Assembly (NCBI GenBank): GCA_016190145.1
Contig: JACPRD010000130.1
Coordinates: 6,528-70,527, forward strand
Origin: Planctomycetota bacterium
Lineage (GTDB): Bacteria > Planctomycetota > MHYJ01 > WSZJ01
Direction: 5' to 3'
DNA length: 64,000 nucleotides
The notes under the pieces are model-generated. The model did not search any database. It saw only the letters and a list, made by a program, of their open reading frames with translations, and was not told the DNA's origin. Positions within the stretch are counted from its first letter, which is position 1; each line of letters opens with the position of its first letter. Positions 10,633-26,594 of the stretch are shown piece after piece. The position numbers and the translations under genes were made by a program.

Positions 10633-10641
10633 GGGCGCCGA

Positions 10642-12523: not shown

Positions 12524-13045
12524 CTACGCCCCCCCCAGCAGCTTCTGCAGCTTTCCCCCGTACTTCACCACCCGCTTCATCGCCGCCGGCGACATCCTCA
12601 TGTACTCCTCGTGCGCCAGCGTCGCCGTCTCGAAGAATTCCAGCATGTCCCCCAGCCGCTTCTGCACCTCGAGCTCCGATCCCTTCCCCGCCTGCGCCAC
12701 CGCTTCCCGCAAGAGCTCCACCGTCGGGTCGATCTCGCGCCGCTTGCGCTCGTTCAGGACGACTTTGAACATGGCCCAGACGTCGCGGAAAGTCTCGAAA
12801 TGATCGCGGCGGTCGCCGAGGACGTGGACGACCTTCGCGAGGCCCCAGGCCTGGAGTTCGCGGAGAGACGTGGAGACGTTGGAGCGGGCGACGGAGAGGG
12901 TCGCGGCGATTTCCTCGGCGGCGAGGGGTTTGGAGGAGATGAAGAGGAGGGCGTGGATCTGGGCGACGGTGCGGTTGATGCCCCAGCGGGTGCCCATTTC
13001 GCCCCAGTGGAGGACGAACTTCTGCGTGGTGGGTGTGAGGTTCAT
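12524..13045 (-). CDS. GbsR/MarR-family winged-helix transcriptional regulator
   Basis: 173-aa ORF: FVLHWGEMGTRWGINRTVAQIHALLFISSKPLAAEEIAATLSVARSNVSTSLRELQAWGL. Divergent from the tRNA array. Confidence 0.75.
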   Translation of the reverse strand: MNLTPTTQKFVLHWGEMGTRWGINRTVAQIHALLFISSKPLAAEEIAATLSVARSNVSTSLRELQAWGLAKVVHVLGDRRDHFETFRDVWAMFKVVLNERKRREIDPTVELLREAVAQAGKGSELEVQKRLGDMLEFFETATLAHEEYMRMSPAAMKRVVKYGGKLQKLLGGA

Positions 13046-13061
13046 GATCCGCCTTCTGTTG

Positions 13062-13079
13062 TTTCTGTCTGTACAGAAA
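13062..13079. promoter_or_regulatory. palindrome TTTCTGT-N4-ACAGAAA next to an AT-rich patch (candidate GbsR operator / divergent promoter)
   Basis: 7-bp inverted arms at 13062-13068 and 13073-13079, 17 nt upstream of the regulator ATG. Direct TTCTGT copy at 13054-13059. ATATATGACA follows. Confidence 0.3.
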
Positions 13080-13469
13080 TATATGACACAATCCCGCCCC
13101 TGTCAAGCTCCCGCCTGGTCCCACGGATTCCCCCGAACCTTTCCACCCCCGCCCGCGATGAACTCTCTGTCGCCCGGCGCCACGGGACCGTAGGTCAACA
13201 GGAGATCGCCCGGCTGTGGCCCAGGAGACGTCGGTGCAACCCCGACCGGTCCCTTGAAAGGACGGCGCATGCCAGACGACGGAAGTGCGAATCGCCCCGA
13301 AGCGATCCCGCACCAACGATTGTCCAGACGCAGGTCCCGAAACCCGCTCGTTTGCGGGTCGAGAGGCTCTTTGACATCCGGCGGACTTTCCCAGGGCCGG
13401 CCCCCGGCCCCCATTCTCTCCCCTTCTCTCGGGGCCGGGGACCGGTCCGATTCTCTCTCTTCCCTCGCC

Positions 13470-13542
13470 TGGGGTGTCGTCTAACGGCTGAGGACGGCGG
13501 CCTCTCACGCTGCAGATGCAGGTTCAACTCCTGTCACCCCGA
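13470..13542 (+). tRNA. tRNA-Glu(CUC)
   Basis: Manual cloverleaf. Acceptor TGGGGTG/CACCCCG; D GTCT/GGAC; AC GCGGC-CTCTCAC-GCTGC (anticodon 13504-13506); T GCAGG-TTCAACT-CCTGT. No CCA. Confidence 0.8.
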
Positions 13543-13652
13543 TTCGGGAAGCGGAACGGAGGCCCGCGCTGCGGCGCCGGAGCGATGTCCCGGTATTCCC
13601 GAGGCAGTCCACCGGCGCCTCCGCGCGGGCCCCACGTTCCGCTTCCCGAATC
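13541..13652 (+). repeat. inter-tRNA GC-rich extended hairpin element H1
   Basis: 18-bp basal stem GATTCGGGAAGCGGAACG / CGTTCCGCTTCCCGAATC. Inner stems GGCCCGCGC/GCGCGGGCC and GGCGCCGG/CCGGCGCC. First nt is nt 72 of tRNA-Glu. Confidence 0.75.
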
Positions 13653-13671
13653 GGCGTAAAAAGAAAAGCAC

Positions 13672-13744
13672 GTCCTGGTAGCTCAACCAGAAGAGCGCCA
13701 GTCTCCGAAGCTGGAGGGTGCAGGCGCGAATCCTGCCCAGGACA
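13672..13744 (+). tRNA. tRNA-Arg(CCG), atypical T and D loops
   Basis: Acceptor GTCCTGG/CCAGGAC; AC CCAGT-CTCCGAA-GCTGG (anticodon 13705-13707); T GCAGG-CGCGAAT-CCTGC (C54 G55). D loop AACCAGAA lacks GG. Confidence 0.65.
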
Positions 13745-13748
13745 TCTC

Positions 13749-13819
13749 TGCGGGATGGATCAGGAGTTGATCGGCGGTCTCATAAGCCGCAAAGGAGGGT
13801 GCAAGTCCCTCTCCCGCTA
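13749..13819 (+). tRNA. tRNA-Met(CAU), initiator-like
   Basis: Acceptor TGCGGGA/TCCCGCT with a 1:72 U.U mismatch; D stem GATC/GATC (A11:U24); AC GCGGT-CTCATAA-GCCGC (anticodon 13781-13783); T GAGGG-TGCAAGT-CCCTC (G55); A73. Confidence 0.65.
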
Positions 13820-13822
13820 TCT

Positions 13823-13919
13823 TCAATTCGGGAGTCGTGAGACGCGCGCTGGACGCGAGAGGCGCGCGCAAGGTGCGCGCCTCGAGCGGCCGGCGCACGG
13901 CTCGCGACTCCCGAATTGA
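13823..13919 (+). repeat. inter-tRNA GC-rich extended hairpin element H2
   Basis: Basal stem TCAATTCGGGAGTCG / CGACTCCCGAATTGA. Inner hairpin GAGGCGCGC-GCAAGGT-GCGCGCCTC. Ends 1 nt before tRNA-Cys. Confidence 0.75.
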
Positions 13920-13920
13920 G

Positions 13921-13994
13921 GCGCGTGTGCCCGAGTGGTCGAAGGGTCCGGTTTGCAAAATCGGAATCCGCTGGTTCGAATCCAGCCGCGCGCT
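13921..13994 (+). tRNA. tRNA-Cys(GCA)
   Basis: Acceptor GCGCGTG/CGCGCGC; AC CCGGT-TTGCAAA-ATCGG (anticodon 13955-13957); T GCTGG-TTCGAAT-CCAGC. Confidence 0.85.
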
Positions 13995-14002
13995 TTCTCG
14001 CA

Positions 14003-14074
14003 CGGGCTGTAGCGCAGGGGAAGCGCGCTTCGTTGGGGTCGAAGAGGTCGGAAGTTCGAACCTTCCCAGCCCGA
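14003..14074 (+). tRNA. tRNA-Pro(GGG)
   Basis: Acceptor CGGGCTG/CAGCCCG (C1:G72); D GCGC/GCGC; AC CTTCG-TTGGGGT-CGAAG (anticodon 14035-14037); T GGAAG-TTCGAAC-CTTCC. Confidence 0.85.
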
Positions 14075-14080
14075 TATTTC

Positions 14081-14154
14081 GGGGGCGTCGTCTAGGGGCT
14101 CAGGACACCGCCCTGTCACGGCGGAGACCACGGGTTCAAATCCCGTCGCCCTCG
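14081..14154 (+). tRNA. tRNA-Asp(GUC)
   Basis: Acceptor GGGGGCG/CGCCCTC; D GTCT/GGAC; AC CCGCC-CTGTCAC-GGCGG (anticodon 14115-14117); T ACGGG-TTCAAAT-CCCGT. Confidence 0.85.
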
Positions 14155-14156
14155 TT

Positions 14157-14257
14157 TCGATGCGCGCAGCGCTCCGCAGAGGCGGCGGTCGCACGTCGGC
14201 CCGGCTGCGCCGGGCCTCGCGCGACCGCTCGCCCCTGCTACGCGCCGCGCGCATCGA
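14157..14257 (+). repeat. inter-tRNA GC-rich extended hairpin element H3 (same subfamily as H8)
   Basis: Basal stem TCGATGCGCGC / GCGCGCATCGA. Apical hairpin GGCCCGGC-TGC-GCCGGGCC. Shares the CGCTCGCCCCTGCT segment with H8. Starts 3 nt after tRNA-Asp. Confidence 0.75.
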
Positions 14258-14278
14258 CGGAACGGCAAGGAAATGCAA

Positions 14279-14351
14279 AGGGGTGTGGGCTAACCGGTAA
14301 GTCACCTCCCTGTTAAGGAGGTTGATCCAGGTTCGAATCCTGGTGCCCCTG
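14279..14351 (+). tRNA. tRNA-Asn(GUU)
   Basis: Acceptor AGGGGTG/TGCCCCT; AC CCTCC-CTGTTAA-GGAGG (anticodon 14312-14314); T CCAGG-TTCGAAT-CCTGG. Confidence 0.8.
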
Positions 14352-14363
14352 TTCGTTTTCGAA

Positions 14364-14453
14364 GGGATTCGCGCGGGTCCAGGACTGCCTGTGCCTTCGT
14401 TGAGCCAAGTTGGACCGTGACCCTGACGGGCGACGCACGGCCCGCCGAATCCC
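14364..14453 (+). repeat. degenerate inter-tRNA hairpin element H3b
   Basis: Basal stem GGGATTCG(C)GCGGG / CCCGC(C)GAATCCC with one bulge on each strand. Interior pairs only partially (GGTCC...GGACC). Confidence 0.45.
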
Positions 14454-14465
14454 CACGCAAACCAC

Positions 14466-14556
14466 GGATGGTTGGCAGAGCCCGGCTTAATGCGCCTGTC
14501 TCGAAAACAGGAGCTCCTGAAACACGGAGCCGGAGGTTCGAATCCTCCACCATCCT
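14466..14556 (+). tRNA. tRNA-Ser(CGA), class II
   Basis: Acceptor GGATGGT/ACCATCC; AC CCTGT-CTCGAAA-ACAGG (anticodon 14502-14504); long variable arm GCTCC...GGAGC; T GGAGG-TTCGAAT-CCTCC. Confidence 0.85.
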
Positions 14557-14560
14557 TCCA

Positions 14561-14649
14561 GGGGAGATGGCCGAGCGGTTGAAGGCACCGCGGTGCTAAC
14601 GCGGCGGGCCCCCTCGGGGGCCCCGAAGGTTCGAATCCTTCTCTTCCCG
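14561..14649 (+). tRNA. tRNA-Ser(GCU), class II
   Basis: Acceptor GGGGAGA/TCTTCCC; AC CCGCG-GTGCTAA-CGCGG (anticodon 14595-14597); long variable arm GGGCCCCC-TC-GGGGGCCC; T GAAGG-TTCGAAT-CCTTC. Confidence 0.85.
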
Positions 14650-14660
14650 TCCAATCTCCC

Positions 14661-14732
14661 GGGGGCGTGGCCGACCGGCAAGGCACCTGCCCGGCAGGCA
14701 GGACCACGAGGGTTCAAGTCCCTCCGCTTCCA
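14661..14732 (+). tRNA. tRNA-Ala(GGC) with C33
   Basis: Acceptor GGGGGCG/CGCTTCC including G3:U70; AC CCTGC-CCGGCAG-GCAGG (anticodon 14693-14695, position 33 = C); T GAGGG-TTCAAGT-CCCTC. Confidence 0.7.
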
Positions 14733-14744
14733 TCCGCTCGACAA

Positions 14745-14816
14745 GGGGGTGTGGCCTAACGGCAAGGCACCTGCGTCGCAAGCAGGAGTATGAGGGTTCA
14801 AATCCCTCCACTTCCA
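14745..14816 (+). tRNA. tRNA-Ala(CGC)
   Basis: Acceptor GGGGGTG/CACTTCC including G3:U70; AC CCTGC-GTCGCAA-GCAGG (anticodon 14777-14779); T GAGGG-TTCAAAT-CCCTC. Confidence 0.8.
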
Positions 14817-14821
14817 TCCGA

Positions 14822-14892
14822 AGGGGCGTCGTTCAGCAGGAGGACCCCGGTTTCCAAGTCCGGTGACGAGGGTGCAATTCCTTCCGCCCCTG
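14822..14892 (+). tRNA. tRNA-Trp(CCA), atypical T loop
   Basis: Acceptor AGGGGCG/CGCCCCT; AC CCGGT-TTCCAAG-TCCGG (31:39 U.U; anticodon 14854-14856); T GAGGG-TGCAATT-CCTTC (G55). Confidence 0.65.
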
Positions 14893-14911
14893 TTGTCAGC
14901 CCGCCGTTCCT

Positions 14912-15013
14912 CCAATTCGAGGCTTGCGGAGAGGGACGGCACGAGCGCGCCCCCGAGCGCGCAGCACGAGGGGCGTGCGCGAGCGCCGGGCCTCGCAGCG
15001 AGTTTCGAATTGG
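14912..15013 (+). repeat. inter-tRNA GC-rich extended hairpin element H4 (same subfamily as H5)
   Basis: Basal stem CCAATTCGA / TCGAATTGG, extended by G.U-rich pairing. 50-nt core at 14938-14987 is 49/50 identical to 15446-15495. Last nt is nt 1 of tRNA-Glu(UUC). Confidence 0.75.
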
Positions 15014-15083
15014 GGCGCGTCGGCTAGTGGAAGGCCCCCAGGCTTTCATCCTGACAGCGCGGGTTCGATTCCCGCCGCGCCTA
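15013..15083 (+). tRNA. tRNA-Glu(UUC)
   Basis: Acceptor GGGCGCG/CGCGCCT; AC CCAGG-CTTTCAT-CCTGA (27:43 C.A; anticodon 15045-15047); T GCGGG-TTCGATT-CCCGC. Confidence 0.8.
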
Positions 15084-15090
15084 TCTGTGA

Positions 15091-15163
15091 AGGAGCGTCG
15101 CTTAGTGGTTGAGCACCGGTTTCTTAAACCGGACGAGGAAGGGTTCGAATCCCTCCGCTCCTA
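15091..15163 (+). tRNA. tRNA-Lys(CUU)
   Basis: Acceptor AGGAGCG/CGCTCCT; AC CCGGT-TTCTTAA-ACCGG (anticodon 15123-15125); T AAGGG-TTCGAAT-CCCTC with a 49:65 A.C mismatch or a bulged A. Confidence 0.75.
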
Positions 15164-15167
15164 TCCC

Positions 15168-15239
15168 GGGGTTGTAGCTCAAAGGCCGAGCACCTGTTTT
15201 TTAAGCAGAGAGATGTGGGTTCGATCCCCACCGGCCCCA
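15168..15239 (+). tRNA. tRNA-Lys(UUU)
   Basis: Acceptor GGGGTTG/CGGCCCC; D GCTC/GAGC; AC CCTGT-TTTTTAA-GCAGA (anticodon 15200-15202); T GTGGG-TTCGATC-CCCAC. Confidence 0.8.
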
Positions 15240-15250
15240 TTCGGTCCAAG

Positions 15251-15322
15251 AGGGGAGTCAGGTAACTGGTAACCACCGAGTCCCTGAAACTCGCCATGCT
15301 GGTTCGAATCCAGCCTCCCCTA
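15251..15322 (+). tRNA. tRNA-Gln(CUG) with C33
   Basis: Acceptor AGGGGAG/CTCCCCT; AC CGAGT-CCCTGAA-ACTCG (anticodon 15284-15286, position 33 = C); T GCTGG-TTCGAAT-CCAGC. Confidence 0.7.
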
Positions 15323-15332
15323 TGAAAAACGC

Positions 15333-15403
15333 GGGCACGTAGGCTAACGGCAGGCCACCAGGTTCTCAGCCTGACAGCGAGGGTTCGATTCCCTCCGTGC
15401 CTA
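15333..15403 (+). tRNA. tRNA-Glu(CUC), paralog of the tRNA at 15013
   Basis: Acceptor GGGCACG/CGTGCCT; AC CCAGG-TTCTCAG-CCTGA (anticodon 15365-15367); T GAGGG-TTCGATT-CCCTC. Confidence 0.8.
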
Positions 15404-15419
15404 TCTGAAAGCCCTTCCT

Positions 15420-15521
15420 CTCGATTCGAGGAGCGGGAGGTGAAGGGCACGAGCGCGCCCCCGAGCGCGCAGCGCGAGGGGCGTGCGCGAGCGCCCTTCA
15501 CCGGACGCTCCTCGAATCGAG
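15420..15521 (+). repeat. inter-tRNA GC-rich extended hairpin element H5 (same subfamily as H4)
   Basis: 16-bp basal stem CTCGATTCGAGGAGCG / CGCTCCTCGAATCGAG. Inner stem GGTGAAGG/CCTTCACC encloses the conserved 50-nt core at 15446-15495. Last nt is nt 1 of tRNA-Phe. Confidence 0.8.
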
Positions 15522-15593
15522 GTGAAGTAGCTTAGACGGTCTGAGCGCCTGGTTGAAAACCAGGAGGCGGAGGTTCGATACCTCCCTTCACCA
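15521..15593 (+). tRNA. tRNA-Phe(GAA)
   Basis: Acceptor GGTGAAG/CTTCACC; AC CCTGG-TTGAAAA-CCAGG (anticodon 15555-15557); T GGAGG-TTCGATA-CCTCC. Confidence 0.85.
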
Positions 15594-15597
15594 TTGC

Positions 15598-15670
15598 GCG
15601 GGCGTCGTCCAACGGACCAGGACCCGAGACTACGAATCTCGAGATGAGGGTTCGATTCCTTCCGCCCGTA
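15598..15670 (+). tRNA. tRNA-Arg(ACG)
   Basis: Acceptor GCGGGCG/CGCCCGT; D GTCC/GGAC; AC CGAGA-CTACGAA-TCTCG (anticodon 15632-15634); T GAGGG-TTCGATT-CCTTC. Confidence 0.85.
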
Positions 15671-15673
15671 TCG

Positions 15674-15745
15674 CGGGGCGTGGCCGAGAAGAGAGGCTCC
15701 CGTTTCCTAAACGGGACCACGCAGGTGCGACTCCTGCCGTCCCGA
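15674..15745 (+). tRNA. tRNA-Arg(CCU), atypical T and D loops
   Basis: Acceptor CGGGGCG/CGTCCCG; AC CCCGT-TTCCTAA-ACGGG (anticodon 15706-15708); T GCAGG-TGCGACT-CCTGC (G55). D loop GAGAAGAGA has no GG. Confidence 0.65.
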
Positions 15746-15749
15746 CTTG

Positions 15750-15820
15750 GCTCCCGTCGTCCAGCGGAAGGGCCCCCGTCCTCTAAACGGGCGACGCAGG
15801 TTCGACCCCTGCCGGGAGCG
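15750..15820 (+). tRNA. tRNA-Arg(UCU) with C33
   Basis: Acceptor GCTCCCG/CGGGAGC; AC CCCGT-CCTCTAA-ACGGG (anticodon 15782-15784, position 33 = C); T GCAGG-TTCGACC-CCTGC. Confidence 0.7.
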
Positions 15821-15828
15821 TCATCCAA

Positions 15829-15909
15829 GGGCGTGTACGGAATGGGATAACCGCGCCGGCCGTAACCCGGCAGCCTCGCGCTTAGAAGGTTCGAGTCCTT
15901 CCGCGCCCA
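15829..15909 (+). tRNA. tRNA-Tyr(GUA), class II, with C33
   Basis: Acceptor GGGCGTG/CGCGCCC; AC GCCGG-CCGTAAC-CCGGC (anticodon 15862-15864, position 33 = C); 13-nt variable arm; T GAAGG-TTCGAGT-CCTTC. Confidence 0.75.
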
Positions 15910-15947
15910 TTGATCACGAGAGACTTCCAGGAAATGCTTTGCCTCCC

Positions 15948-16066
15948 AGAGTTTGAGAGAAAACCGGGATGGGGGGCGGAGTCGGCCGGCTCGTCCAGTC
16001 CCGGCCGCATCGTGGGCCTTCCTGCCGGCCGACGGAGCATCCCAGCCCGGTTTTCTCTCAAACTCT
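15948..16066 (+). repeat. inter-tRNA extended hairpin element H6
   Basis: Perfect 21-bp basal stem AGAGTTTGAGAGAAAACCGGG / CCCGGTTTTCTCTCAAACTCT. Inner stem GTCGGCCGG/CCGGCCGAC. Ends 1 nt before tRNA-Gly(GCC). Confidence 0.8.
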
Positions 16067-16067
16067 T

Positions 16068-16139
16068 GCGGCTGTAGCTCAACGGCAGAGCGCCACGTTG
16101 CCAACGTGGATACTGCGGGTTCAAGCCCCGCCAGTCGCT
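16068..16139 (+). tRNA. tRNA-Gly(GCC)
   Basis: Acceptor GCGGCTG/CAGTCGC; D GCTC/GAGC; AC CCACG-TTGCCAA-CGTGG (anticodon 16100-16102); T GCGGG-TTCAAGC-CCCGC. Confidence 0.85.
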
Positions 16140-16145
16140 TTCTTT

Positions 16146-16219
16146 CAGGACGTAGCGGAGCCTGGTAACGCGCTTCGTTCGGGGCGAAGAGACCGGTGGT
16201 TCGAATCCACCCGTCCTGA
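16146..16219 (+). tRNA. tRNA-Pro(CGG)
   Basis: Acceptor CAGGACG/CGTCCTG (C1:G72); AC CTTCG-TTCGGGG-CGAAG (anticodon 16180-16182, G37); T GGTGG-TTCGAAT-CCACC. Confidence 0.85.
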
Positions 16220-16235
16220 TTTTCTCGGCAGACGC

Positions 16236-16308
16236 GCTTCTGTAGCCCAACGGAAGAGGCACCAAGCTCAGAACTTGGCGAGTGGAGGTTCGAATCCTCC
16301 CGGAAGCA
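16236..16308 (+). tRNA. class I (short variable arm) tRNA with Leu anticodon CAG
   Basis: Acceptor GCTTCTG/CGGAAGC; D arm TAGCCCAACGGAAGAGGC; AC CCAAG-CTCAGAA-CTTGG (anticodon 16269-16271); variable region only 5 nt (CGAGT); T GGAGG-TTCGAAT-CCTCC; A73. Confidence 0.7.
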
Positions 16309-16324
16309 TTTTGAATCTCAGAAC

Positions 16325-16395
16325 GGTCTCGTAGCTCAAAGGCAGAGCGCCGGTCTCACATACCGGTGACGGAGGTTCGAGTCCTTCCGGGACCA
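16325..16395 (+). tRNA. tRNA-Val(CAC)
   Basis: Acceptor GGTCTCG/CGGGACC; D GCTC/GAGC; AC CCGGT-CTCACAT-ACCGG (anticodon 16357-16359); T GGAGG-TTCGAGT-CCTTC. Confidence 0.85.
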
Positions 16396-16405
16396 TGGAC
16401 ACACG

Positions 16406-16477
16406 GCTCCTGTGGTCTAGCGGCCGGGCACCAGCGCGACATGCTGGGCAAGGCAGGTTCGACTCCTGCCGGGAGCA
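16406..16477 (+). tRNA. tRNA-Val(GAC) with G32 C33
   Basis: Acceptor GCTCCTG/CGGGAGC; AC CCAGC-GCGACAT-GCTGG (anticodon 16438-16440, position 33 = C); T GCAGG-TTCGACT-CCTGC. Confidence 0.7.
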
Positions 16478-16483
16478 CTTCAT

Positions 16484-16554
16484 GCCTCTCTAGTTCAATG
16501 GGAGAACCCCTGCTTCCCACGCAGGTGACGAGGGATCGATACCCTCGAGAGGCT
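16484..16554 (+). tRNA. tRNA-Gly(CCC), A54 T loop
   Basis: Acceptor GCCTCTC/GAGAGGC; D GTTC/GAAC; AC CCTGC-TTCCCAC-GCAGG (anticodon 16516-16518); T GAGGG-ATCGATA-CCCTC. Confidence 0.75.
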
Positions 16555-16558
16555 CTTG

Positions 16559-16629
16559 GCGCCTGTAGCTCAAGGGGAGAGCCCCCGCCCGATAAGCGGG
16601 AGATGCAGGTTCAAGTCCTGACTGGCGCA
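16559..16629 (+). tRNA. tRNA-Ile(GAU) with C33; two stem mismatches
   Basis: Acceptor GCGCCTG/CTGGCGC (6:67 U.U); AC CCCGC-CCGATAA-GCGGG (anticodon 16591-16593, position 33 = C); T GCAGG-TTCAAGT-CCTGA (49:65 G.A). Confidence 0.6.
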
Positions 16630-16673
16630 TTGAGACCCGGGAGGAGTTCCCGGACCGACTGCCTCGGCATCCC

Positions 16674-16775
16674 AGAGCGCGTGAACGATTCGATTGGAGG
16701 CGCGCGGCCGGGGCGAGCGACGCGAAGCGGCGCCAGGTCCGGCCCCCGCCGGAGATCGAGTCGTTCACGCGCTCT
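16674..16775 (+). repeat. inter-tRNA GC-rich extended hairpin element H7
   Basis: 15-bp basal stem AGAGCGCGTGAACGA / TCGTTCACGCGCTCT, continued by TTCGAT/ATCGAG pairing. The 3' arm overlaps the first 5 nt of tRNA-Thr (16771-16775). Confidence 0.75.
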
Positions 16776-16841
16776 TGTAGCTCAACGGTGAGCACCTGCC
16801 TCGTAAGCAGGGGGATGTGGGTTCGATTCCCACCAGGAGCT
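16771..16841 (+). tRNA. tRNA-Thr(CGU)
   Basis: Acceptor GCTCTTG/CAGGAGC; D GCTC/GAGC; AC CCTGC-CTCGTAA-GCAGG (anticodon 16802-16804); T GTGGG-TTCGATT-CCCAC. Confidence 0.85.
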
Positions 16842-16843
16842 TC

Positions 16844-16938
16844 GGAATCGCGCGCGCTTCGCAGGGGCGGCTCGCGCACGGCGGCCGGGCTTCGCCCGGC
16901 CTGGCGCGCTCGCTCGCCCCTGCTGCGCGCGCGATTTC
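16844..16938 (+). repeat. inter-tRNA GC-rich extended hairpin element H8 (same subfamily as H3)
   Basis: Basal stem GGAATCGCGCGCGC / GCGCGCGCGATTTC. Also GCAGGGGCG/CGCCCCTGC. Apical hairpin GGCCGGGC-TTC-GCCCGGCC. Starts 3 nt after tRNA-Thr. Confidence 0.8.
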
Positions 16939-16967
16939 GAAAAGGGAAAGGCGCCGGGAAGGAGAAG

Positions 16968-17040
16968 GCTCTCGTAGCCCAACGGCAGAGGCGGCGGTCT
17001 CAAGAACCGCGCGGTGCAGGTTCGAATCCTGCCGGGAGCA
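16968..17040 (+). tRNA. class I (short variable arm) tRNA with Leu anticodon CAA
   Basis: Acceptor GCTCTCG/CGGGAGC; D arm TAGCCCAACGGCAGAGGC; AC GCGGT-CTCAAGA-ACCGC (anticodon 17001-17003); 5-nt variable region (GCGGT); T GCAGG-TTCGAAT-CCTGC; A73. Confidence 0.7.
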
Positions 17041-17050
17041 TCGAAGAAAC

Positions 17051-17125
17051 GCCCTCGTAGCCCAATCTGGCAGAGGCCCATGGTTGAGGGCCATGGTGGT
17101 GATGGTTCGATTCCATCCGAGGGCA
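17051..17125 (+). tRNA. class I (short variable arm) tRNA with Leu anticodon GAG
   Basis: Acceptor GCCCTCG/CGAGGGC; D arm TAGCCCAATCTGGCAGAGGC; AC CATGG-TTGAGGG-CCATG (anticodon 17086-17088); 5-nt variable region (GTGGT); T GATGG-TTCGATT-CCATC; A73. Confidence 0.7.
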
Positions 17126-17248
17126 TCAGCCTGAGCAGTCTGAATTCGAACAAGACATCTGGCACTTCCTGAGGGGAAACCGTCGGAGAGTTCGGAAGTA
17201 GCCTGAGGTGCTCTCTGCAGGGAACGAACTATCCGCTTCGGCGAAGCC

Positions 17249-19810
17249 CTAAAGCCGCGGATCGACCGGCTCGCTTTCCAGTGCCAGGACGCCGAAAACA
17301 CATTCGTGGACGCGGCGAAGCGGCTCGTTGCGGACGAAACGCTCGAGCCCCTCGACTCCGAGGGCGAACTCCCTCATCGCAAGAGAACGCTTCGCGCCGA
17401 GGCCGCGGGAGCGGAGCCGACTCAGGTTCGCGGGGATCGAGTAGTCCGGGCCATAGATGATGCGGAGGTACTCGGGTCCGCGGCACTTGACGGCTGGTTG
17501 AGCGACTCCCCTCCGCCCCCGCGCGACGAAGTCCAGCGGCTTTACGACCATTCCCTCTCCACCGCGCGAAGTCAGTTCCTCCCACCAGCGGATCCCCGCC
17601 TGTTCGCTGGCCTCATCTGTGACATTGACCTCGATGAAACCGGTCTCGATGAGGATCTTGCTTCCCTTGCAGAATCGGGAGATGGCGCTCATGTGCCACA
17701 GGTGGTTCTTGTCGAAATACGTTTTCCCCTCGGTGGCCAGCACGTGGAACGGCGCCAGCTTGATGTCCGCCAGCGTCTTGACCGGCCAGCAGTACCCGCG
17801 ATAGGCGGTCACGTATTTCTCGGCGAGAGAAGCGCGTTCGACCGAGCGTTCCAGCAGCGAGGCGACGTCAGCTCCCCGCGCTGCTGCCGTTTTCAGTGTT
17901 TCGACCGAGTCCCTCAGCGCTGCCCCTGACGCCGCCCCGACGGCCGCGTACTGCCGCTTCACCAGCTCCTGGGCCTTCGCCGACCATGGCATCAGTTCGC
18001 AATCGAGGCAGACCCAATCCGTGTCGAATTCCTTCCAGGATTCTGAGCGGTCCAGCGCTTCCCGCAGATGCGCCAGCAGCTCTGTCTCAAACGCGAGATC
18101 TTCGAAGAAGCGGCGCCCGGTGCGAGTCACGCAGATGCCGCTTTCACTGACGATTCCGAATCTGCGACGGGCTGCGTCTTCATTGCGACAAAGCACCACG
18201 ACGACCCGTGATCCCATGTGCTTCTCTTCGCACAGCACCTGCGGAATTCCCTCGTGCCGGAAGTACGCGAAGGCCTGCGCCGGATGCTCCAGCAGACTCC
18301 CCTCCTGCGAGGTCTCCGGCGGCGACATGGTCGGCGGAAGGTAGATCAGCCACTTCGGGTTGGCTGCAAAGCGGCTCATGACCTCGAGCGCGGCGATCGC
18401 GTTCTCTTCGCGGATCGTCACGTTGTGATGGAGGCGCGTCGTCACGATCCTCTTCCCGATCACGTCCGCGAGGTCGAGCAGGTCGTCGTGGGCCTGCTGC
18501 GGGGAGAGCGCCTGAGTCTGGAATTCCGCCGGATGGAAGGGCTTCGCCGGTTTCGCGTACATGGCGCCCGCGGGGACTGAAACAAGCTCCTTCTCCGGGT
18601 AGCGAAGCGCCGTGAGCTTGCCGCCGAAAACGCAGCCGGTATCGATGTTGATCGTGTTGTTGAGCCACTCGGGCGCCGGCACGGGCGTGTGTCCGTAGAC
18701 GACCATGGACGGCCCGCGATACTCCGCGGCCCAGTTGTTGCGGACCGGCAGGCCGAATTCGTCGGTCTCCCCCGTCGTCTCGCCGTAGAGTGCGAACTCC
18801 CGCACCTTGCCGGAGCCTCGACCCTGCATGGTCTCTTTCATCCCGGCGTGCGCCACGACGAGCCCGTTGTCGTCGAGCACGTAGTGGGAGACCAGGTCGT
18901 CAATGAAGGCGGCCGTCTTCTCGCGAAATGCCGCCGGTTCGCGGTCCAGCTGCGCGAGGGATTCGGCAAGACCGTGGGTGATCTGCACGTCCTTGCCGCG
19001 GAGTTTCCGGAGCAGCTTGACGTCGTGGTTTCCCGGGACGCAAAGCGCGGTCCCGGCCTCCACCATGCCCATCACGAGCCGCAGCACGTCCGGAGTGTTC
19101 GGTCCACGATCGACGAGATCGCCCACGAAGACTGCTTTGCGATTCCCGGGCGGCTTCGCGGCAATTGTGCGCTCCCCAGTCGTCGTCACGTCGACGACAT
19201 ACCCGAGACGCTCAAGAAGCGCCTTCGTCTCGTCGAAGCAGCCGTGAATGTCCCCGATGATGTCGAACGGGCCATGATCGCTCTTCCGGTTGTTCCACAA
19301 CGGCTCTCGCTCGATGGTTGCCGCATCGATCTCTTCCGGGCTTGCCAGAACGTGGACGTGCCGGAAGCCTTCAACCTGAAGGTTCCGGAGCGATTTGCGA
19401 AGCTGCTGCGACTGCTGCCGGATGACATGTGGACCGAACGTGCGCTCACTACGCCCGCGGTTGCGGTCCTGGCACAGCCGTTCCGGAAGGTCCAGCACGA
19501 TCGCGACGGGCAGGCAATGGTAGTCCCGGGCCAGCGCGACGAGGGGTTTGCGCGCTTCGGCCTGGACGTTCGTCGCATCGATGACGGTGAGCTTGCCCGC
19601 CGCCAGGCGTTTTCCGGCGATGTAGTGCAGCACCTCAAAGGCCGCGTTCGTGGCAGCTTGATTGTTCTCGTCGTCCGACACGAGGCCGCGGCAGAAGTCT
19701 GAGGACAGGATCTCCGTCGGGAGAAAGTGCTTCCGCCCGAACGTGGACTTCCCGCTGCCCGAGGGGCCGATCAGGACAACGAGGGACAGCTCAGGTATTT
19801 TCAGTTTCAC
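17249..19810 (-). CDS. pnkp: polynucleotide kinase-phosphatase/ligase Pnkp (RNA repair)
   Basis: ORF 17249..19918 trimmed to GTG 19810, which overlaps the hen1 TGA (GTGA). Kinase P-loop GPSGSGKST. Metallophosphoesterase motifs GDIHGC, GDLVDRGP, GNHD. Nucleotidyltransferase-type Lys motif EEKHMGSR in the C-terminal ligase-like domain. 853 aa. Confidence 0.85.
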   Translation of the reverse strand: MKLKIPELSLVVLIGPSGSGKSTFGRKHFLPTEILSSDFCRGLVSDDENNQAATNAAFEVLHYIAGKRLAAGKLTVIDATNVQAEARKPLVALARDYHCLPVAIVLDLPERLCQDRNRGRSERTFGPHVIRQQSQQLRKSLRNLQVEGFRHVHVLASPEEIDAATIEREPLWNNRKSDHGPFDIIGDIHGCFDETKALLERLGYVVDVTTTGERTIAAKPPGNRKAVFVGDLVDRGPNTPDVLRLVMGMVEAGTALCVPGNHDVKLLRKLRGKDVQITHGLAESLAQLDREPAAFREKTAAFIDDLVSHYVLDDNGLVVAHAGMKETMQGRGSGKVREFALYGETTGETDEFGLPVRNNWAAEYRGPSMVVYGHTPVPAPEWLNNTINIDTGCVFGGKLTALRYPEKELVSVPAGAMYAKPAKPFHPAEFQTQALSPQQAHDDLLDLADVIGKRIVTTRLHHNVTIREENAIAALEVMSRFAANPKWLIYLPPTMSPPETSQEGSLLEHPAQAFAYFRHEGIPQVLCEEKHMGSRVVVVLCRNEDAARRRFGIVSESGICVTRTGRRFFEDLAFETELLAHLREALDRSESWKEFDTDWVCLDCELMPWSAKAQELVKRQYAAVGAASGAALRDSVETLKTAAARGADVASLLERSVERASLAEKYVTAYRGYCWPVKTLADIKLAPFHVLATEGKTYFDKNHLWHMSAISRFCKGSKILIETGFIEVNVTDEASEQAGIRWWEELTSRGGEGMVVKPLDFVARGRRGVAQPAVKCRGPEYLRIIYGPDYSIPANLSRLRSRGLGAKRSLAMREFALGVEGLERFVRNEPLRRVHECVFGVLALESEPVDPRL

Positions 19811-21204
19811 CGCGAGAACACCGCCATCTGGGTAGGCGCGCCGACGACGGCGTCCTCGGGGCCGACCGGAAGAATCCGAACTTGATACCCGGCACGGCTG
19901 GCGACACGTTCCGCCCACGCTCTGAAATCAACGCGCGACCATTCGAACCGGTGGTCCTTGTGACGAAACTGGCCGGCAGGAAGCGTCTCGAACTTCACGT
20001 TGTAGTCCGAGTTCGGCGTCGTGAGGACTACGAACCTGGGCTTCGCGTGCTCGAACAGCACGCGCTCGAACGCGTCGAGGCGACCCGGGTCCAGATGTTC
20101 CACGACCTCGATCAGTGCCGCGGCGTCGAACCCCTCGAGACGCTTGTCGCGATAGGTCAGCGATCCCTGGATGAGCTGCAGGCGCGCCTTCTGGATGTCC
20201 GGCATCCGCTCGAGCTTGAGCTTGTCACTCGCGAACTCGAGCGCGCGATGCGAGACGTCCATCCCCAGCACGCGCTCGAAGGTCTTGTCGGCCAGCAGGT
20301 CTCTGAGAAGACGGCCCTCGCCGCATCCGAGGTCCATGACGCTTTTCGCGCCCACTTCTCGAAGCACGGCGACGACTGCCCCCATCCGATGATCGTGAAG
20401 CCGGATCTTCTCTTCCAGCCCAGCTTCCTGCCTTGCCTGATTCTCCCGTGTCGATTCCAGTTCTTCGAGATCGTCGTCCACCAGCCGGGACAACGCGTCG
20501 CGACACAGGTCCCGCCGGTGCTTGAGGTAGCGACGGGCAATCGCGTCCTTCTCCGGATGCCCCGCCAGCCAGCCCTCGCCATGACGAAGCAGTTTCTCGA
20601 CCTCGTCCTCACCGACCCAGTAGTGCTTTGAGTTGTCCAGCACCGGAACCAGCACGTAGAGGTGGCTCAGCAGCTCTTGGAGCATGCGCGTGCCCTGGAG
20701 GTGGAGCGTGAAGTACACACTGTCGCCCCATTCCGGAAAGGTCGGGTCGAGGGAGTGCGGTTCGACGCTGACACGATAGCCGAGCGGCTCGAAGAGAGAC
20801 CGCAGGAACGCCTCGCCGCCGCGGCAGGGGATGACCGAGAGCGTGGCTTCAAGTTTCAGGGGCTTTGACGCCAGCTCCGGCCTCTCCTTGCTTCGCCCGG
20901 CGAGCGCGGAGCCGAAGATCTGCGCGATCGCGACGCTCAGGAACGAAGAAGCAACGTAGGGCCGATCATTCACGTACTGGTCGAGCGAGTGGCCTTCGCC
21001 GCTGCCGGGCTTCCCCCGCACGAGGCCGATCGGGTCGATCTCGAGCAGGAGCGCTGCCGTGCAGCGCTGCTCCGCCGCTTCGGGGTAGAAGACGTGCGCT
21101 TTGCCGAATGAAAGGTCGAAGGACTGCGCGCGAGCAGGATTCTTGTGAAGGAGAAACCCCAGATCCGTGGCTGGAAACGTGGAAGTGGTGATGGTGAGCA
21201 ACAT
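19807..21204 (-). CDS. hen1: RNA 3'-terminal ribose 2'-O-methyltransferase Hen1
   Basis: 465-aa ORF. N-terminus MLLTITTSTFPATDLGFLLHKNPAR is typical of bacterial Hen1. C-terminal SAM motif VMDLGCGEGRLL. Immediately upstream of, and coupled to, pnkp. Confidence 0.85.
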   Translation of the reverse strand: MLLTITTSTFPATDLGFLLHKNPARAQSFDLSFGKAHVFYPEAAEQRCTAALLLEIDPIGLVRGKPGSGEGHSLDQYVNDRPYVASSFLSVAIAQIFGSALAGRSKERPELASKPLKLEATLSVIPCRGGEAFLRSLFEPLGYRVSVEPHSLDPTFPEWGDSVYFTLHLQGTRMLQELLSHLYVLVPVLDNSKHYWVGEDEVEKLLRHGEGWLAGHPEKDAIARRYLKHRRDLCRDALSRLVDDDLEELESTRENQARQEAGLEEKIRLHDHRMGAVVAVLREVGAKSVMDLGCGEGRLLRDLLADKTFERVLGMDVSHRALEFASDKLKLERMPDIQKARLQLIQGSLTYRDKRLEGFDAAALIEVVEHLDPGRLDAFERVLFEHAKPRFVVLTTPNSDYNVKFETLPAGQFRHKDHRFEWSRVDFRAWAERVASRAGYQVRILPVGPEDAVVGAPTQMAVFSR

Positions 21205-21450
21205 GGGGGCAGAGTGTAATCGAGCGAGACTGTATTACGGTTCAGACCTTCCGGGTCGAGCAACGTCGAATGCGTGTCTGGCCTGTTCGATCGGAAGCTC
21301 TGGCGGAGGCGGGCGCGCGGGGATTCGAGTCCGTCCCACACTCGGCCAGAGTCGCGGCGAGGAGCGTCGCGAAGACACAGGAAGACCGGGGAATCATGTC
21401 GGGGATGAACGATGCGGCTATTTGGAAGTTCTCGACGAACTGCGGGGGAA

Positions 21451-21963
21451 TCAGGCCTTGCCCCGCGCTTTGCCAGCGCGCGCCTTCTTCGCCGCCGGCT
21501 TCCCCTTCTTTCTGCCCGCCAGCATCCCCTCGACCGCCGCGACGTACTTCTTCGCGGGCACCCGCCGGATCGCCTTCCCGATGACGTCGAGCGGAATGTC
21601 CTCGACGCTCGTGAACCGGATGCAGGCCTTGCCCATGTCGAGCTTCTTGCCCGATTTCGCCCAGGCCTCGCGGAACCACGCGGCCTCGCCGGCGTTGCCG
21701 TAGACGGACATGAGGTAGAGAGACAGGTAGTTTTTCTGGGAAGCGAGCATGGCGAACCCGAGGGGCTGCTTCGGGTCGCAGTGGTATCCGGCGGGATAGA
21801 CGCGGTGCGGCACGTAGTAGCAGATCATGCCGTACTGCATTCCCTCCTCGTAGTCCTTGTCGAGGTTGGCGAGGATCAGCTTGCGGACGGCCTCGAGCGC
21901 CTTGCGCCGGTCGGCAGGAAGCGCGGCGAGGTAGGCGGCGACGGTCTTCGCGGACGAAGGCAT
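21451..21963 (-). CDS. DUF1801 (YdhG-like) domain protein with Lys-rich tail
   Basis: C-terminal part of ORF 21451..24723 from ATG 21963 (MPSSAKTVAAYLAALPADRRKALEAVRKLI...). The upstream part of that ORF is an out-of-frame shadow of the molybdoenzyme gene. Confidence 0.65.
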   Translation of the reverse strand: MPSSAKTVAAYLAALPADRRKALEAVRKLILANLDKDYEEGMQYGMICYYVPHRVYPAGYHCDPKQPLGFAMLASQKNYLSLYLMSVYGNAGEAAWFREAWAKSGKKLDMGKACIRFTSVEDIPLDVIGKAIRRVPAKKYVAAVEGMLAGRKKGKPAAKKARAGKARGKA

Positions 21964-24803: not shown

Positions 24804-24805
24804 GG

Positions 24806-26377
24806 TCAGCTCAACGGGGGCGCCTGGCCGGCCTTGATCCAGAGGTGCTCGTAGATGTAGAGGCCGGCGAGGGCGAGGAGGGAAGCGGCCGCTTCGACGA
24901 TCGTGTCTTGACGGAATGTGGCGATCAAGAAGATCGGACCCAGGTGCCCGGCGAGGACGACGCCCAACCAGAAGGGAATCCTCCAGCGACCGCGGGTCAG
25001 CATGCAGGCCGCCCGGTGTGAGTCCGTCGAACCGTGAGGGACGAGAAATTCGCCGGCGAGGACGACAAGGCCGGCCATGAGGAACAGCACGAGCATCCCA
25101 CGAACGGATTGTCCGATAACCCGCTCCATCGAGACGTAGATGCAGCGCGTCATGGCGACCGATTCTCCGGAATCCACAATGAGTGCGAAGGCCATGAGTG
25201 ATGCTGTCCCCGCGATCCCTGCCGCGACGACAAGCTGGCCGAGGAGAAGAGGGCTCCGCCAGAAGGCCCGGCCATTCGCCTGACCGAACAGGAAGGCCGA
25301 GTAACCGGCGGCGCCGACGGAGGCAATGAAGGTGGGCCACGCGAGCATCCTGATCCAGTCTGGCTGGCCGAAAGCGCCCGCCGCGAGCCACGCGAGCGTC
25401 AACGCACCAAAAACCATCAGGACGATCGTCCCCCAGACGAGCCACGATCGCCAATTCGGCCTAAGCAGGATCAGGTAGAAACGTTCCGGTCTCTTGAGAT
25501 CGGCGATGAGTAGGAGTGCCGTGATCGCTGTGAATGCGAGCGCGATCGCCGGAGCCACTAGTGTGCTCACGAAACTCAGGCCATCGGGATTGAGGATGGC
25601 CTCTCCGGCCACAATCATCATCACCCCCGCCGCGATCGACTTCGTCCACAGGTAGGCCGCGACTTTCCAGCCCCACGGCGCGCGGTTTTTCGGCGTGTCG
25701 TAGACGGTGCGCGCCATGGCGTCGACGGGGTTGTGGTCGCGGGCCTGCGAGCGGGCGAACTCGGCTTCGGAGGCCGTCGGCGTCGACCACATCTGCTGGC
25801 TTTCGGCCTGCGTCATCGAGGGCGTGAGCGTCGCGGCGTCGGCGCCGAGGTAGAAGACCTTGGGCTGGGTGCCCTGCTCGGGCTTGCGGACCTGGACTTC
25901 CTTTTTCGCGACGAGCTTCGCGATCCGGCTCGCGGGGTCGTCGAGGTCGCCCGTGATGATCGCCTGCTCGGGACACACGATCACGCACGCGGGCTCGAGG
26001 CCGACCTCGACGCGGTGCGCGCAGAAGTTGCACTTGGCCGCGGTGTCGGTCGCGGGGTCGATGTAGAGCGCGTCGTACGGGCACGCCTGCATGCACGCCT
26101 TGCAGCCGATGCAGGCGTCGCGGTCGAAGTCGACGATGCCGTTATTGCGGCGGAATAGCGCCGAGGTGGGGCAGATCTCGATGCAGGGCGCGTTGTCGCA
26201 GTGGTTGCAGCGCAGAACCGCAAAATGCCGGGACGTGTCGGGGAAATGGCCCTTCTCCACGTACTTCACCCACGTCCGAAACGTCCCGAGCGGGACGTTG
26301 TTCTCTTCCTTGCAGGCGACGGTGCAGGCGTGGCAGCCGATGCAGCGGTTCTGATCGAGAACGAAACCGTAGCGCAT
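24806..26377 (-). CDS. 4Fe-4S ferredoxin subunit (NrfC/DmsB-like) fused to NrfD/PsrC-like membrane subunit
   Basis: ORF 24806..26512 trimmed to ATG 26377, preceded by GGAGGGG. Contains CIGCHACTVAC, CNHCDNAPC, CIGCKACMQACP and CNFC...CVIVCP clusters. About 8 hydrophobic helices follow. Confidence 0.75.
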   Translation of the reverse strand: MRYGFVLDQNRCIGCHACTVACKEENNVPLGTFRTWVKYVEKGHFPDTSRHFAVLRCNHCDNAPCIEICPTSALFRRNNGIVDFDRDACIGCKACMQACPYDALYIDPATDTAAKCNFCAHRVEVGLEPACVIVCPEQAIITGDLDDPASRIAKLVAKKEVQVRKPEQGTQPKVFYLGADAATLTPSMTQAESQQMWSTPTASEAEFARSQARDHNPVDAMARTVYDTPKNRAPWGWKVAAYLWTKSIAAGVMMIVAGEAILNPDGLSFVSTLVAPAIALAFTAITALLLIADLKRPERFYLILLRPNWRSWLVWGTIVLMVFGALTLAWLAAGAFGQPDWIRMLAWPTFIASVGAAGYSAFLFGQANGRAFWRSPLLLGQLVVAAGIAGTASLMAFALIVDSGESVAMTRCIYVSMERVIGQSVRGMLVLFLMAGLVVLAGEFLVPHGSTDSHRAACMLTRGRWRIPFWLGVVLAGHLGPIFLIATFRQDTIVEAAASLLALAGLYIYEHLWIKAGQAPPLS

Positions 26378-26594
26378 CGCTCCGCCGCCCCCCTCCGTGG
26401 ATTCGCTCCAGAGGGTGCCAGCGCGTCGGGCCGGCGTCCACGATTTCGTACCCGGAGAGTCCTGTTTCCGGCCCACATCCCGAACAAAAATCGGCGGGCG
26501 GGGGAACCGCATCGCGGGCGCGTCGGCACTGTCGCATAGCGCGCGCGCCCCTTCACCTGCTTCACGAATCGTGCGGTTCCCCGCCGGCCGGGAA

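Follow-up and report, generated by a model that had tools for sequence, protein, structure and literature searches.

Organization of the locus

This study concerns a 64,000-nucleotide (nt) stretch of a Planctomycetota contig (JACPRD010000130.1), hereafter the window, in which a long array of transfer RNA (tRNA) genes converges on hen1-pnkp, a gene pair for RNA repair. A reading of the same DNA made from its letters alone (the sequence-only reading) had described this convergence, and we confirm it: the last tRNA gene ends at 17125, and the stop codon of pnkp lies at 17249 on the opposite strand. That reading had counted 32 tRNA genes from position 13470 onward; the array itself stands, but it holds 33 genes and starts at 13184. 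The features on which the argument depends are listed below; labels such as L170 are our handles for contigs of other organisms.

13135..13163, + strand: promoter-like element GAACCTTT-N16-TGAAC, about 45 nt upstream of tRNA-His
13184..17125, + strand: accessory long tRNA array of 33 genes (ARAGORN, Rfam and relaxed ARAGORN)
13184-13254, + strand: tRNA-His(GTG), first gene of the array (Rfam 49.9 bits; relaxed ARAGORN; orthologue in L170)
14661..14816, + strand: tandem pair tRNA-Ala(GGC) and tRNA-Ala(CGC), 84-nt units that are 84% identical
14822-14892, + strand: tRNA-Trp(CCA) (Rfam 45.1 bits; relaxed ARAGORN)
16236-16308, + strand: short tRNA-Leu(CAG), 73 nt, without a long variable arm
16968-17040, + strand: short tRNA-Leu(CAA), without a long variable arm
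17051-17125, + strand: short tRNA-Leu(GAG), last gene of the array, without a long variable arm
14661, 15251, 15750, 15829, 16406 and 16559: tRNAs with C33, respectively Ala-GGC, Gln-CTG, Arg-TCT, Tyr-GTA, Val-GAC and Ile-GAT
13543-13650, 13823-13919, 14157-14257 and 14913-15012: GC-rich, near-perfect hairpin spacers
15421-15520, 15948-16066, 16679-16770 and 16842-16940: further hairpin spacers of the same kind
17126..17248: convergent spacer of 123 nt between tRNA-Leu(GAG) and the pnkp stop
17249..19810, - strand: pnkp, an 853-residue polynucleotide kinase-phosphatase-ligase (Pfam, PDB matches and motifs)
19807..21204, - strand: hen1, 465 residues, with an N-terminal domain that activates the Pnkp ligase and a C-terminal RNA 3'-terminal 2'-O-methyltransferase domain
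21217..21243, - strand: promoter-like motif GAACCG-N15-TCGATTA, ending 13 nt before the hen1 start

A probably supplementary tRNA array with unusual members

Default ARAGORN settings place 31 tRNAs on the + strand from 13470 to 17125, to which Rfam adds two more above its gathering score, at 13184-13254 and 14822-14892; the second of these, tRNA-Trp(CCA), falls in a block that is 85% identical to the Trp/Ala genes of L170. All 20 amino acids are represented among the 33 genes, which are spaced 3-16 nt apart within blocks, with ten longer gaps of 100-215 nt. The tandem duplication that produced the two alanine genes points to growth of the array by duplication followed by a change of anticodon, and no HNH homing endonuclease was seen with the array. 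All 33 genes lack an encoded CCA, and in each a T follows the discriminator base, features that fit processing by RNase Z and subsequent addition of CCA.

The Rfam scores of the array tRNAs are modest (40-70 bits). Their stem positions are 93% paired, and comparison with the orthologues in L177 reveals 63 double compensatory changes and 45 broken pairs in the stems; paired stems and compensatory changes argue that the cloverleaves are under selection. The array tRNAs can read 47 codons, which account for 94.5% of codon use in the genes of the window. Fourteen sense codons (ACC, UCC, GGA, GCA and ten others) cannot be read, and there is a single CAT tRNA; thus other tRNA genes must exist, and the array probably supplements them. 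With 33 genes in 3.9 kb it exceeds the number that marks published long tRNA arrays (L-arrays; more than about 15 tandem tRNA genes on one strand), and it fits that class.

The sequence-only reading had spoken of many altered anticodon loops, and this holds in part: C33 replaces the near-universal U33 in 6 of the 33 tRNAs, and a purine occupies position 32 in 3 of them. Related arrays contain more C33 members (11/34 in L177 and 9/34 in L183), and the C33 of Tyr-GTA, Val-GAC and Ile-GAT is kept in two other lineages. Among 28 cellular control tRNAs, at most one lacks U33, and the only other clear non-U33 cases among the controls are copies of a phage tRNA-Glu. This phage tRNA-Glu(TTC), on the viral contigs L081 and L082, has a CCTTCAA loop identical to that of the Glu-TTC genes of L177 and L183.

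The three tRNA-Leu genes of the array, class I-like and with A73, measure 73-75 nt, as opposed to 83-85 nt for the cellular control tRNA-Leu, and this short form is kept in L177 and L183. The tRNA-His gene carries C at position -1, hence no encoded G-1, together with U73, and the same is seen in relatives. A tRNA-His of this make-up is atypical for bacteria.

Eight of the ten long gaps are hairpins with folding free energies of -66 to -88 kcal/mol and z-scores of -3.6 to -12.8, and the remaining two, between Asn and Ser (14352-14465) and between His and Glu (13255-13469), fold weakly. The spacers are about 100 nt long and some of the hairpins share sequence. Within the window such hairpins are concentrated in the array, and in four related loci they are confined to the arrays. 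They could be processing elements, pause elements or array-specific palindromic repeats. We had considered that the gaps of 100-200 nt might be decayed tRNA genes and rejected this, as they give no tRNA signal at E <= 1 and fold into long, near-perfect hairpins; matches of the spacers to Rfam microRNA families are weak, lie far below gathering scores and were dismissed as artefacts of hairpin structure. The C33 loops, the short-arm tRNA-Leu genes and the hairpin spacers are, as a set, a more unusual feature of this locus than the pairing of the array with hen1-pnkp.

An intact hen1-pnkp operon

The open reading frame of pnkp spans 17249-19918 on the - strand and matches the Pfam families AAA_33 (kinase), Metallophos and PNKP_ligase (594 bits). 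We place its start at the GTG at 19810, where it overlaps the hen1 stop codon as GTGA (19807-19810), and the resulting protein of 853 amino acids (aa) is identical to a database entry for a polynucleotide kinase-phosphatase from 'MAG: Planctomycetes bacterium' (MAG, metagenome-assembled genome). Pnkp matches solved structures of the kinase, phosphatase and ligase domains (PDB, E 1e-72 to 1e-172). Its kinase region contains GPSGSGKS at residue 15 and SSDFCR at 36, its phosphatase region GDIHG at 186, GDLVDRG at 230, GNHD at 260 and GHTP at 373, and its ligase region EEKHMGS at 528; from what is known of CthPnkp, we take these to supply the P-loop, the aspartate base, the metal ligands and the ligase lysine. 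Hen1 combines a Hen1_L domain (385 bits) with a methyltransferase domain in Pfam, matches PDB entries 4dqz/4drf over its N-terminal domain and 3jwh/3jwg over its methyltransferase, and retains the motifs DLGCGEG, EVVEH and HKDHRFE.

Through this GTGA overlap hen1 and pnkp are translationally coupled in one operon, and the two genes are arranged likewise in L170, in L174 and on plasmids. Compared with L170, nonsynonymous divergence (dN) is 0.029 for pnkp and 0.03-0.04 across hen1-pnkp, with synonymous divergence (dS) of 0.46-0.48, so that the dN/dS ratio of about 0.06-0.09 indicates strong purifying selection. We read this selection as a sign that the hen1 and pnkp genes are functional, and as nothing beyond that. 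The GC content at third codon positions (GC3) of the two genes is 0.80, as against 0.89-0.93 in host genes.

Convergent transcription and promoter-like motifs

Given their convergent orientation, the array and hen1-pnkp cannot share one transcript. The 123-nt spacer contains no terminator-like site and folds no better than shuffled sequences (z = 0.18), and transcription of one unit might impede that of the other. Just past the pnkp stop lies a small hairpin (- strand sequence GCTTCGCCGAAGC) in a block conserved with L170, and homology at the DNA level between the window and L170 extends to 17226.

Each unit has a promoter-like motif of its own. The element upstream of tRNA-His conforms to GAACC(T/C)TT...T(C/G)AA(C/A/G) in five lineages, with GAACC invariant and the T(C/G)AA box conserved; it is a candidate promoter for the array, of a kind that presumably resembles promoters read by extracytoplasmic function (ECF) sigma factors. 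The motif upstream of hen1 is conserved in the window, L170 and L174 versions of the gene pair, and its conservation across all three makes it part of what we will describe as a mobile cassette. It is unique in the window (one match, 0.01 expected) and is a candidate hen1 promoter, with a GAACC box of the -35 type and an ECF-sigma-like character; since it lies only 13 nt from the start codon, the hen1 mRNA would be nearly leaderless. The two motifs have the generic pentamer GAACC in common and differ in their spacing and in the -10-like box. A search for regulatory sequence common to the array and hen1 yielded nothing beyond GAACC, and a relaxed pattern shows no enrichment in the window (14 matches, 8.5 expected). 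Hence neither common transcription nor a common regulatory element was found for the array and hen1-pnkp, and the view of the sequence-only reading that the two form a single module of tRNA supply and repair survives only in part: the linkage exists and one relative has it too, but it is neither general nor a matter of co-transcription.

A probable mobile cassette in a variable slot

Only two clusters of Pnkp sequences are closer to the window protein than 73% identity. The first (P0002; 94% aa identity) comes from the Hainich groundwater contigs L170-L173. The L170 genome resembles the window in synteny on both the FtsK side and the MarR side and carries a colinear array of 34 tRNA genes that is likewise convergent with hen1-pnkp, so the adjacency is not peculiar to the window: in L170/L171, too, the operon faces a homologous array. 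Its position is different. The operon lies 5.4 kb from the array, in a 13-kb segment of low GC3 that separates Leu(CAA) from the orthologous Leu(GAG) and that also holds a PifA-like abortive-infection gene (PADLOC 1e-84) and a gene for a DUF4132 protein. The PifA-like KAP NTPase gene adjoins hen1 and spans 5169-7490 on the - strand in L171 and 5169-7724 in L170, being intact in one assembly and fragmented in another; as the assemblies come from one site, this points to strain-level variation in a defence gene.

The second cluster (P0003; 89% aa identity; L174-L176) has an unrelated context that includes an integrase, a weak LmuA-like match and a single tRNA-Ser, and there is no tRNA array beside the operon on the 13.5-kb contig L174. 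Homology between the operons (88.6% nt identity with L170, 83.9% with L174) stops at the operon edges; the flanking genes are 57-79% identical to L170 at the nt level and unrelated to L174. Together with the conserved upstream motif and the low GC3, these edges suggest that hen1-pnkp is a compact mobile cassette.

To find array-bearing relatives we used the divergent MarR gene as an anchor. Colinear homologous arrays were recovered in L177 (the same genome as L170), L183, L186/L189 (16 tRNAs) and L179, with sizes of 16-35 genes across lineages, and no array lies next to MarR in L194/L195 and L201. By the identity of MarR and the C92 peptidase, L177, L183 and L179 form a clade, outside which the window and L186 branch more deeply; Peptidase_C92 of the window and that of L170 are 50% identical in aa sequence, and the two FtsK proteins 75%. 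Wherever the array is present, in at least five related lineages, it occupies the same MarR-anchored syntenic site, which argues for vertical descent, and from these comparisons the array appears to be old, vertically inherited and clade-specific. Its presence in the wider clade, by comparison within that clade, is patchy.

What differs from lineage to lineage is the DNA at the 3' end of the array. This slot is visible in three array lineages, namely the window, L170 and L183; the contigs L179 and L186 end in or near the array. The cargo of the slot is as follows.

Window: hen1-pnkp and a molybdopterin oxidoreductase operon
L170: PifA-like gene, hen1-pnkp and DUF4132 protein
L183: a 761-aa protein without a family match

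L183, the sister of L170, has the array with Leu-CAA and Leu-GAG adjacent, as in the window, and no hen1-pnkp at the array end. The pairing thus occurs, in different configurations, in two of the three array lineages informative for the slot, and it is missing from every one of 163 other hen1-pnkp loci.

Between the window and L170, the cassette genes have dS of 0.46-0.48, within the range of the flanking genes (0.45-0.80), whereas their dN is much lower (0.03-0.04 versus 0.19-0.65); the high nt identity of the cassette is therefore due mainly to purifying selection. Judged by dS, the cassette may be as old as its flanks or younger. No att-like direct repeats surround the cassette in the window. 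In L170 the motif ATACGAACTWT marks the 3' terminus of the array and flanks the 13-kb insert (4919-4929, 17791-17801 and 17883-17893), and a further copy lies at the array end in L186 (767-777). It could be a target of recombination or insertion; it is absent from the window, and a repeated 11-mer is expected by chance. Because the position of the cassette relative to Leu-GAG differs between the two lineages and the CAA-GAG junction of L183 is intact, we favour two separate insertions of the cassette, and a single old insertion followed by rearrangement and loss is possible.

Survey of other Pnkp loci

The 80 closest Pnkp loci in species-representative genomes and the 80 closest in metagenomes of the Joint Genome Institute (JGI), with 62-73% identity to the window protein and drawn mostly from Acidobacteriota, Verrucomicrobiota, Poribacteria, Cyanobacteria and Chloroflexota, were scanned with up to 10 kb of flank on each side. 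None of these 160 loci has a tRNA array within 10 kb, and the 30 tRNAs in the 2.5 Mb around them correspond to about background density. A single locus, L131, has four tRNAs (Met, Val, Arg and Pro) at its contig end (22-687), about 7 kb upstream of hen1 and 8.5 kb from pnkp, with a hen1-pnkp that is 70% identical; the contig is truncated there, and these tRNAs may mark the border of a further array in some other taxon. The cassette also occurs on 18 plasmid records, and no tRNA lies near hen1-pnkp in the three plasmid loci examined.

With no array at 160 loci from genomes and metagenomes and at three plasmid loci, proximity to a tRNA array is not a general property of hen1-pnkp. The suggestion that hen1-pnkp neighbourhoods in related genomes might be enriched for tRNA arrays is not borne out: besides these counts, the L174 cassette sits in an unrelated context and the L183 array has no cassette at its end. 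Among 50,697 phages, tblastn at E <= 1e-20 detected no Pnkp, and a scan of viral contigs with Pnkp returned nothing but domains of the lambda-phosphatase-like kind (22-34% identity). For Hen1, the phage matches are distant ones (29% over the methyltransferase domain in XacN1, and 23.6% over the full length in two Stenotrophomonas phages).

Genomic setting

The sequence-only reading had treated the tRNAs as a phage-type set, which the flanking DNA contradicts. The genes on both sides are ordinary chromosomal genes that are syntenic in several MAGs, and we therefore regard the window as chromosomal DNA of a Planctomycete MAG rather than phage DNA. The region 13000-21500 has no megablast match to phage DNA, and among plasmids only a 200-bp match to pnkp on one plasmid; no integrase was found in the window. 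The GC content across the window is 64-75%. The neighbouring features are these.

550-2013, - strand: MiaB, a tRNA-modifying enzyme, upstream of the array
7612-8166, + strand: RNase T/Rv2179c-like 3'-5' exoribonuclease, upstream of the array
12524..13045, - strand: MarR/GbsR-family regulator, divergent from the array and the conserved left anchor in all array lineages
21975..27704, - strand: molybdopterin oxidoreductase, FeS/NrfD protein and a 369-aa protein, slot cargo specific to the window
Upstream genes, by content: MiaB, STAND/TPR cyclase, RNase T-like exonuclease, C92 peptidase and MarR
Downstream genes: molybdopterin oxidoreductase operon, FG-GAP protein and FtsK
Farther downstream: guanylate kinase, YicC, triose-phosphate isomerase, ABC transporter, aldehyde dehydrogenase, ECF sigma factor and Ser/Thr kinase

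A near-consensus sigma-70-like promoter lies beside the MarR/GbsR gene at 13078-13106 on the - strand. The two oxidoreductase genes of 21975..27704 are missing from the equivalent position in L170 and L183. The exoribonuclease and MiaB genes are found 5-12 kb upstream of the array, and the synteny of MiaB with the array extends to L183 and L186. Elsewhere in the window, two mutually inverted blocks of tandem repeats at 43510-43784, made of a 14-nt unit (AGTTGCCAGTGACC, seven copies) and a 7-nt unit (CACTGGC, twelve copies), form an intergenic palindrome of about 270 nt, and a separate hairpin with 40-nt arms is located at 5584-5706. The + strand has an excess of A over T of up to 0.46 at 10100-12400, which probably stems from T at the second codon position of minus-strand genes for membrane proteins (DCC1/MBOAT-like).

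How the array and the cassette came together

We consider it rather probable, from comparison of genomes, that the locus consists of a mobile repair cassette that inserted at the variable edge of a clade-specific accessory array and acts in trans. The two would be separate units placed tail to tail, each functional alone. The array would probably be transcribed as one precursor from the GAACC-type promoter upstream of tRNA-His, this precursor would be cut by RNase P and RNase Z with CCA added afterwards, and the mature tRNAs would supplement a housekeeping set encoded elsewhere. The cassette would be self-contained, its two overlapping genes being preceded by a promoter-like motif of their own and followed by a short hairpin; being horizontally mobile, it would have landed in the variable slot beyond the last array genes, which may be a hot spot for insertion. 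Pnkp-Hen1 would then heal, seal and 2'-O-methylate broken RNAs in trans, whichever tRNA had been cut. Adjacency to a tRNA array is neither needed for Pnkp-Hen1 activity nor a hallmark of either system.

Several observations weigh against so loose an association. In two diverged lineages the cassette lies within 0.1-5.4 kb of the same array end and in the same convergent orientation, and hen1-pnkp is the only slot cargo that the window and L170 have in common; whether through one old insertion or two, the shared pairing exceeds a single chance event. The dS of the cassette lies within the flank range, so vertical co-inheritance with the array is possible. Only three array lineages inform on the slot at all, and a GAACC box resembling a -35 element precedes both units. 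Furthermore, L-arrays are known to be co-regulated with an RNA ligase gene and hen1-pnkP to be co-induced (PMC8421152).

Because hen1-pnkp is the sole slot cargo shared by both lineages, we keep a substantial probability for a linkage maintained by selection, which we nevertheless regard as a tentative alternative, clearly less probable than the insertion of an independent cassette. The locus would then be an island for tRNA back-up and tRNA repair under ribotoxin, phage or translational stress: the array would add tRNAs, some of them possibly nuclease-resistant through C33, Pnkp-Hen1 would reseal and methylate cleaved ones, and proximity would be favoured through co-regulation (for instance by related ECF-type promoters) or co-transfer. 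The recurrence at the same array end speaks for it, as do the C33 loops, which are frequent in the arrays, conserved in Tyr, Val-GAC and Ile, and rare in the cellular controls; the GAACC box upstream of both units and the defence-type (PifA-like) neighbour in L170 point the same way. Phage T4, whose tRNAs act with Pnk and Rnl1 against PrrC, is a general precedent. More specific ones are the coupling of an L-array to rtcB together with the induction of hen1-pnkP (PMC8421152) and the anticodon-loop changes of phage tRNAs (PMC10264068). On the other hand, L183 has the array without the cassette and L174 the cassette without the array, an array is missing from all 163 other hen1-pnkp loci, and the sample amounts to two related genomes. 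Convergent units without a terminator between them would, if anything, interfere with each other, and the -10-like boxes and spacings of the two motifs differ, with no enrichment of a combined pattern in the window. A fuller version of selected linkage strikes us as unlikely. It would make the locus an anti-ribotoxin or stress module in which the C33 and short-arm Leu tRNAs, expressed from an ECF-type promoter in a hairpin-punctuated precursor, serve as nuclease-resistant back-ups or decoys, Pnkp-Hen1 made from a related promoter reseals and methylates broken tRNAs, and the cassette is retained or re-acquired at the array end owing to this joint action.

Two other explanations are less credible still than selection for the linkage. 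That the array is the main housekeeping tRNA operon, with hen1-pnkp as an unrelated neighbour, would suit its coverage of all 20 amino acids and 94.5% of codon use, its fixed vertical site and the selection on tRNA structure; with 14 unreadable codons and a single CAT tRNA, a gene number that ranges from 16 to 35, no array next to MarR in L194 and L201, and atypical members (Rfam scores of 40-70 bits, C33, short-arm Leu, His without G-1), we find it improbable. A prophage or other mobile element that carries both the tRNAs and the repair genes would recall the large tRNA sets typical of jumbo phages, such as XacN1 with its 56 tRNAs and annotated PNKP and Hen1 homologue. This explanation we judge to be very improbable indeed, as phage genomes gave no match to the DNA or to Pnkp and only remote matches to Hen1, the flanks are chromosomal genes syntenic in several MAGs, the window has no integrase and the cassette no direct repeats around it, and no phage structural or integration genes are seen bounding 13-21 kb.

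Should the linkage prove to be selected, the locus would offer a natural system in which to study the in vivo role of L-arrays and of Pnkp-Hen1, and it would address the joint use of tRNA replacement and repair against ribotoxins or translational stress. On either account, it is evidence for hen1-pnkp travelling as a compact cassette of a promoter and two genes, and the array family, with its conserved non-canonical tRNAs and structured spacers, merits a study of its own.

Comparison with known systems

The proteins themselves conform to the bacterial Pnkp/Hen1 system (PMC3675462, PMC3902929; PDB 4drf), with which the window shares operon order, gene overlap, domains and motifs. They are undistinguished in comparison with that system; what is unusual is their position by a tRNA array, seen at none of 163 other loci.

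Phage T4 also unites tRNA genes of its own and enzymes that heal and seal anticodon loops in one genome. Amitsur et al. reportedly described in 1987 how its Pnk and Rnl1 repair tRNA-Lys cleaved by PrrC, and the T4 tRNAs, together with these two enzymes, counter PrrC. T4 differs from the window in being a phage, in repairing with enzymes of other families (Pnk and Rnl1) and in lacking methylation by Hen1.

Large tRNA sets and repair of the Pnkp/Hen1 type are combined on one replicon in two further cases. The jumbo phage XacN1 has 56 tRNAs and genes that its authors annotated as PNKP and a Hen1 homologue (PMC5852040), and Borg elements have 5-23 tRNAs and a Pnkp1-Rnl-Hen1 cluster (PMC11208441). 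Unlike in the window, the tRNAs and repair genes are not adjacent in either; the replicon is a phage in the first case and an extrachromosomal element of archaea in the second. Cluster C1 mycobacteriophages carry an array of about 33 tRNAs whose anticodon-loop deviations have been proposed to confer resistance to anticodon nucleases (van den Berg et al. 2023, PMC10264068). The window is similar in tRNA number and in having loop deviations (C33 in 6/33); it differs in that the array is on a host chromosome, the deviation is mostly C33, and resistance is hypothetical.

The closest parallel is the L-array. Santamaria-Gomez et al. 2021 defined these arrays and listed Planctomycetes among the phyla that have them; in cyanobacteria, L-array neighbourhoods are enriched in genes for RNA processing and translation, including rtcB, and the array of Anabaena is co-regulated with rtcB, while hen1-pnkP is induced late in the same translational-stress response (PMC8421152). 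The concept of supply plus repair has therefore already been published with another ligase, rtcB, and the belief that such a pairing was undescribed does not hold for the concept (PMC8421152, PMC5852040); it does hold for physical abutment, as we found no report in the literature of hen1-pnkp abutting an L-array. Like the L-array of PCC 7120, the window array consists of tens of tRNA genes on one strand, is probably supplementary and includes some atypical tRNAs (PMC8421152). It differs in that its neighbour is hen1-pnkp rather than rtcB, in that it is chromosomal, at a fixed site and vertically inherited within its clade instead of visibly spread by horizontal gene transfer, and in that its long spacers are stable hairpins. 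The locus adds a Planctomycete L-array with an RNA-repair neighbour, which extends the rtcB case to hen1-pnkp.

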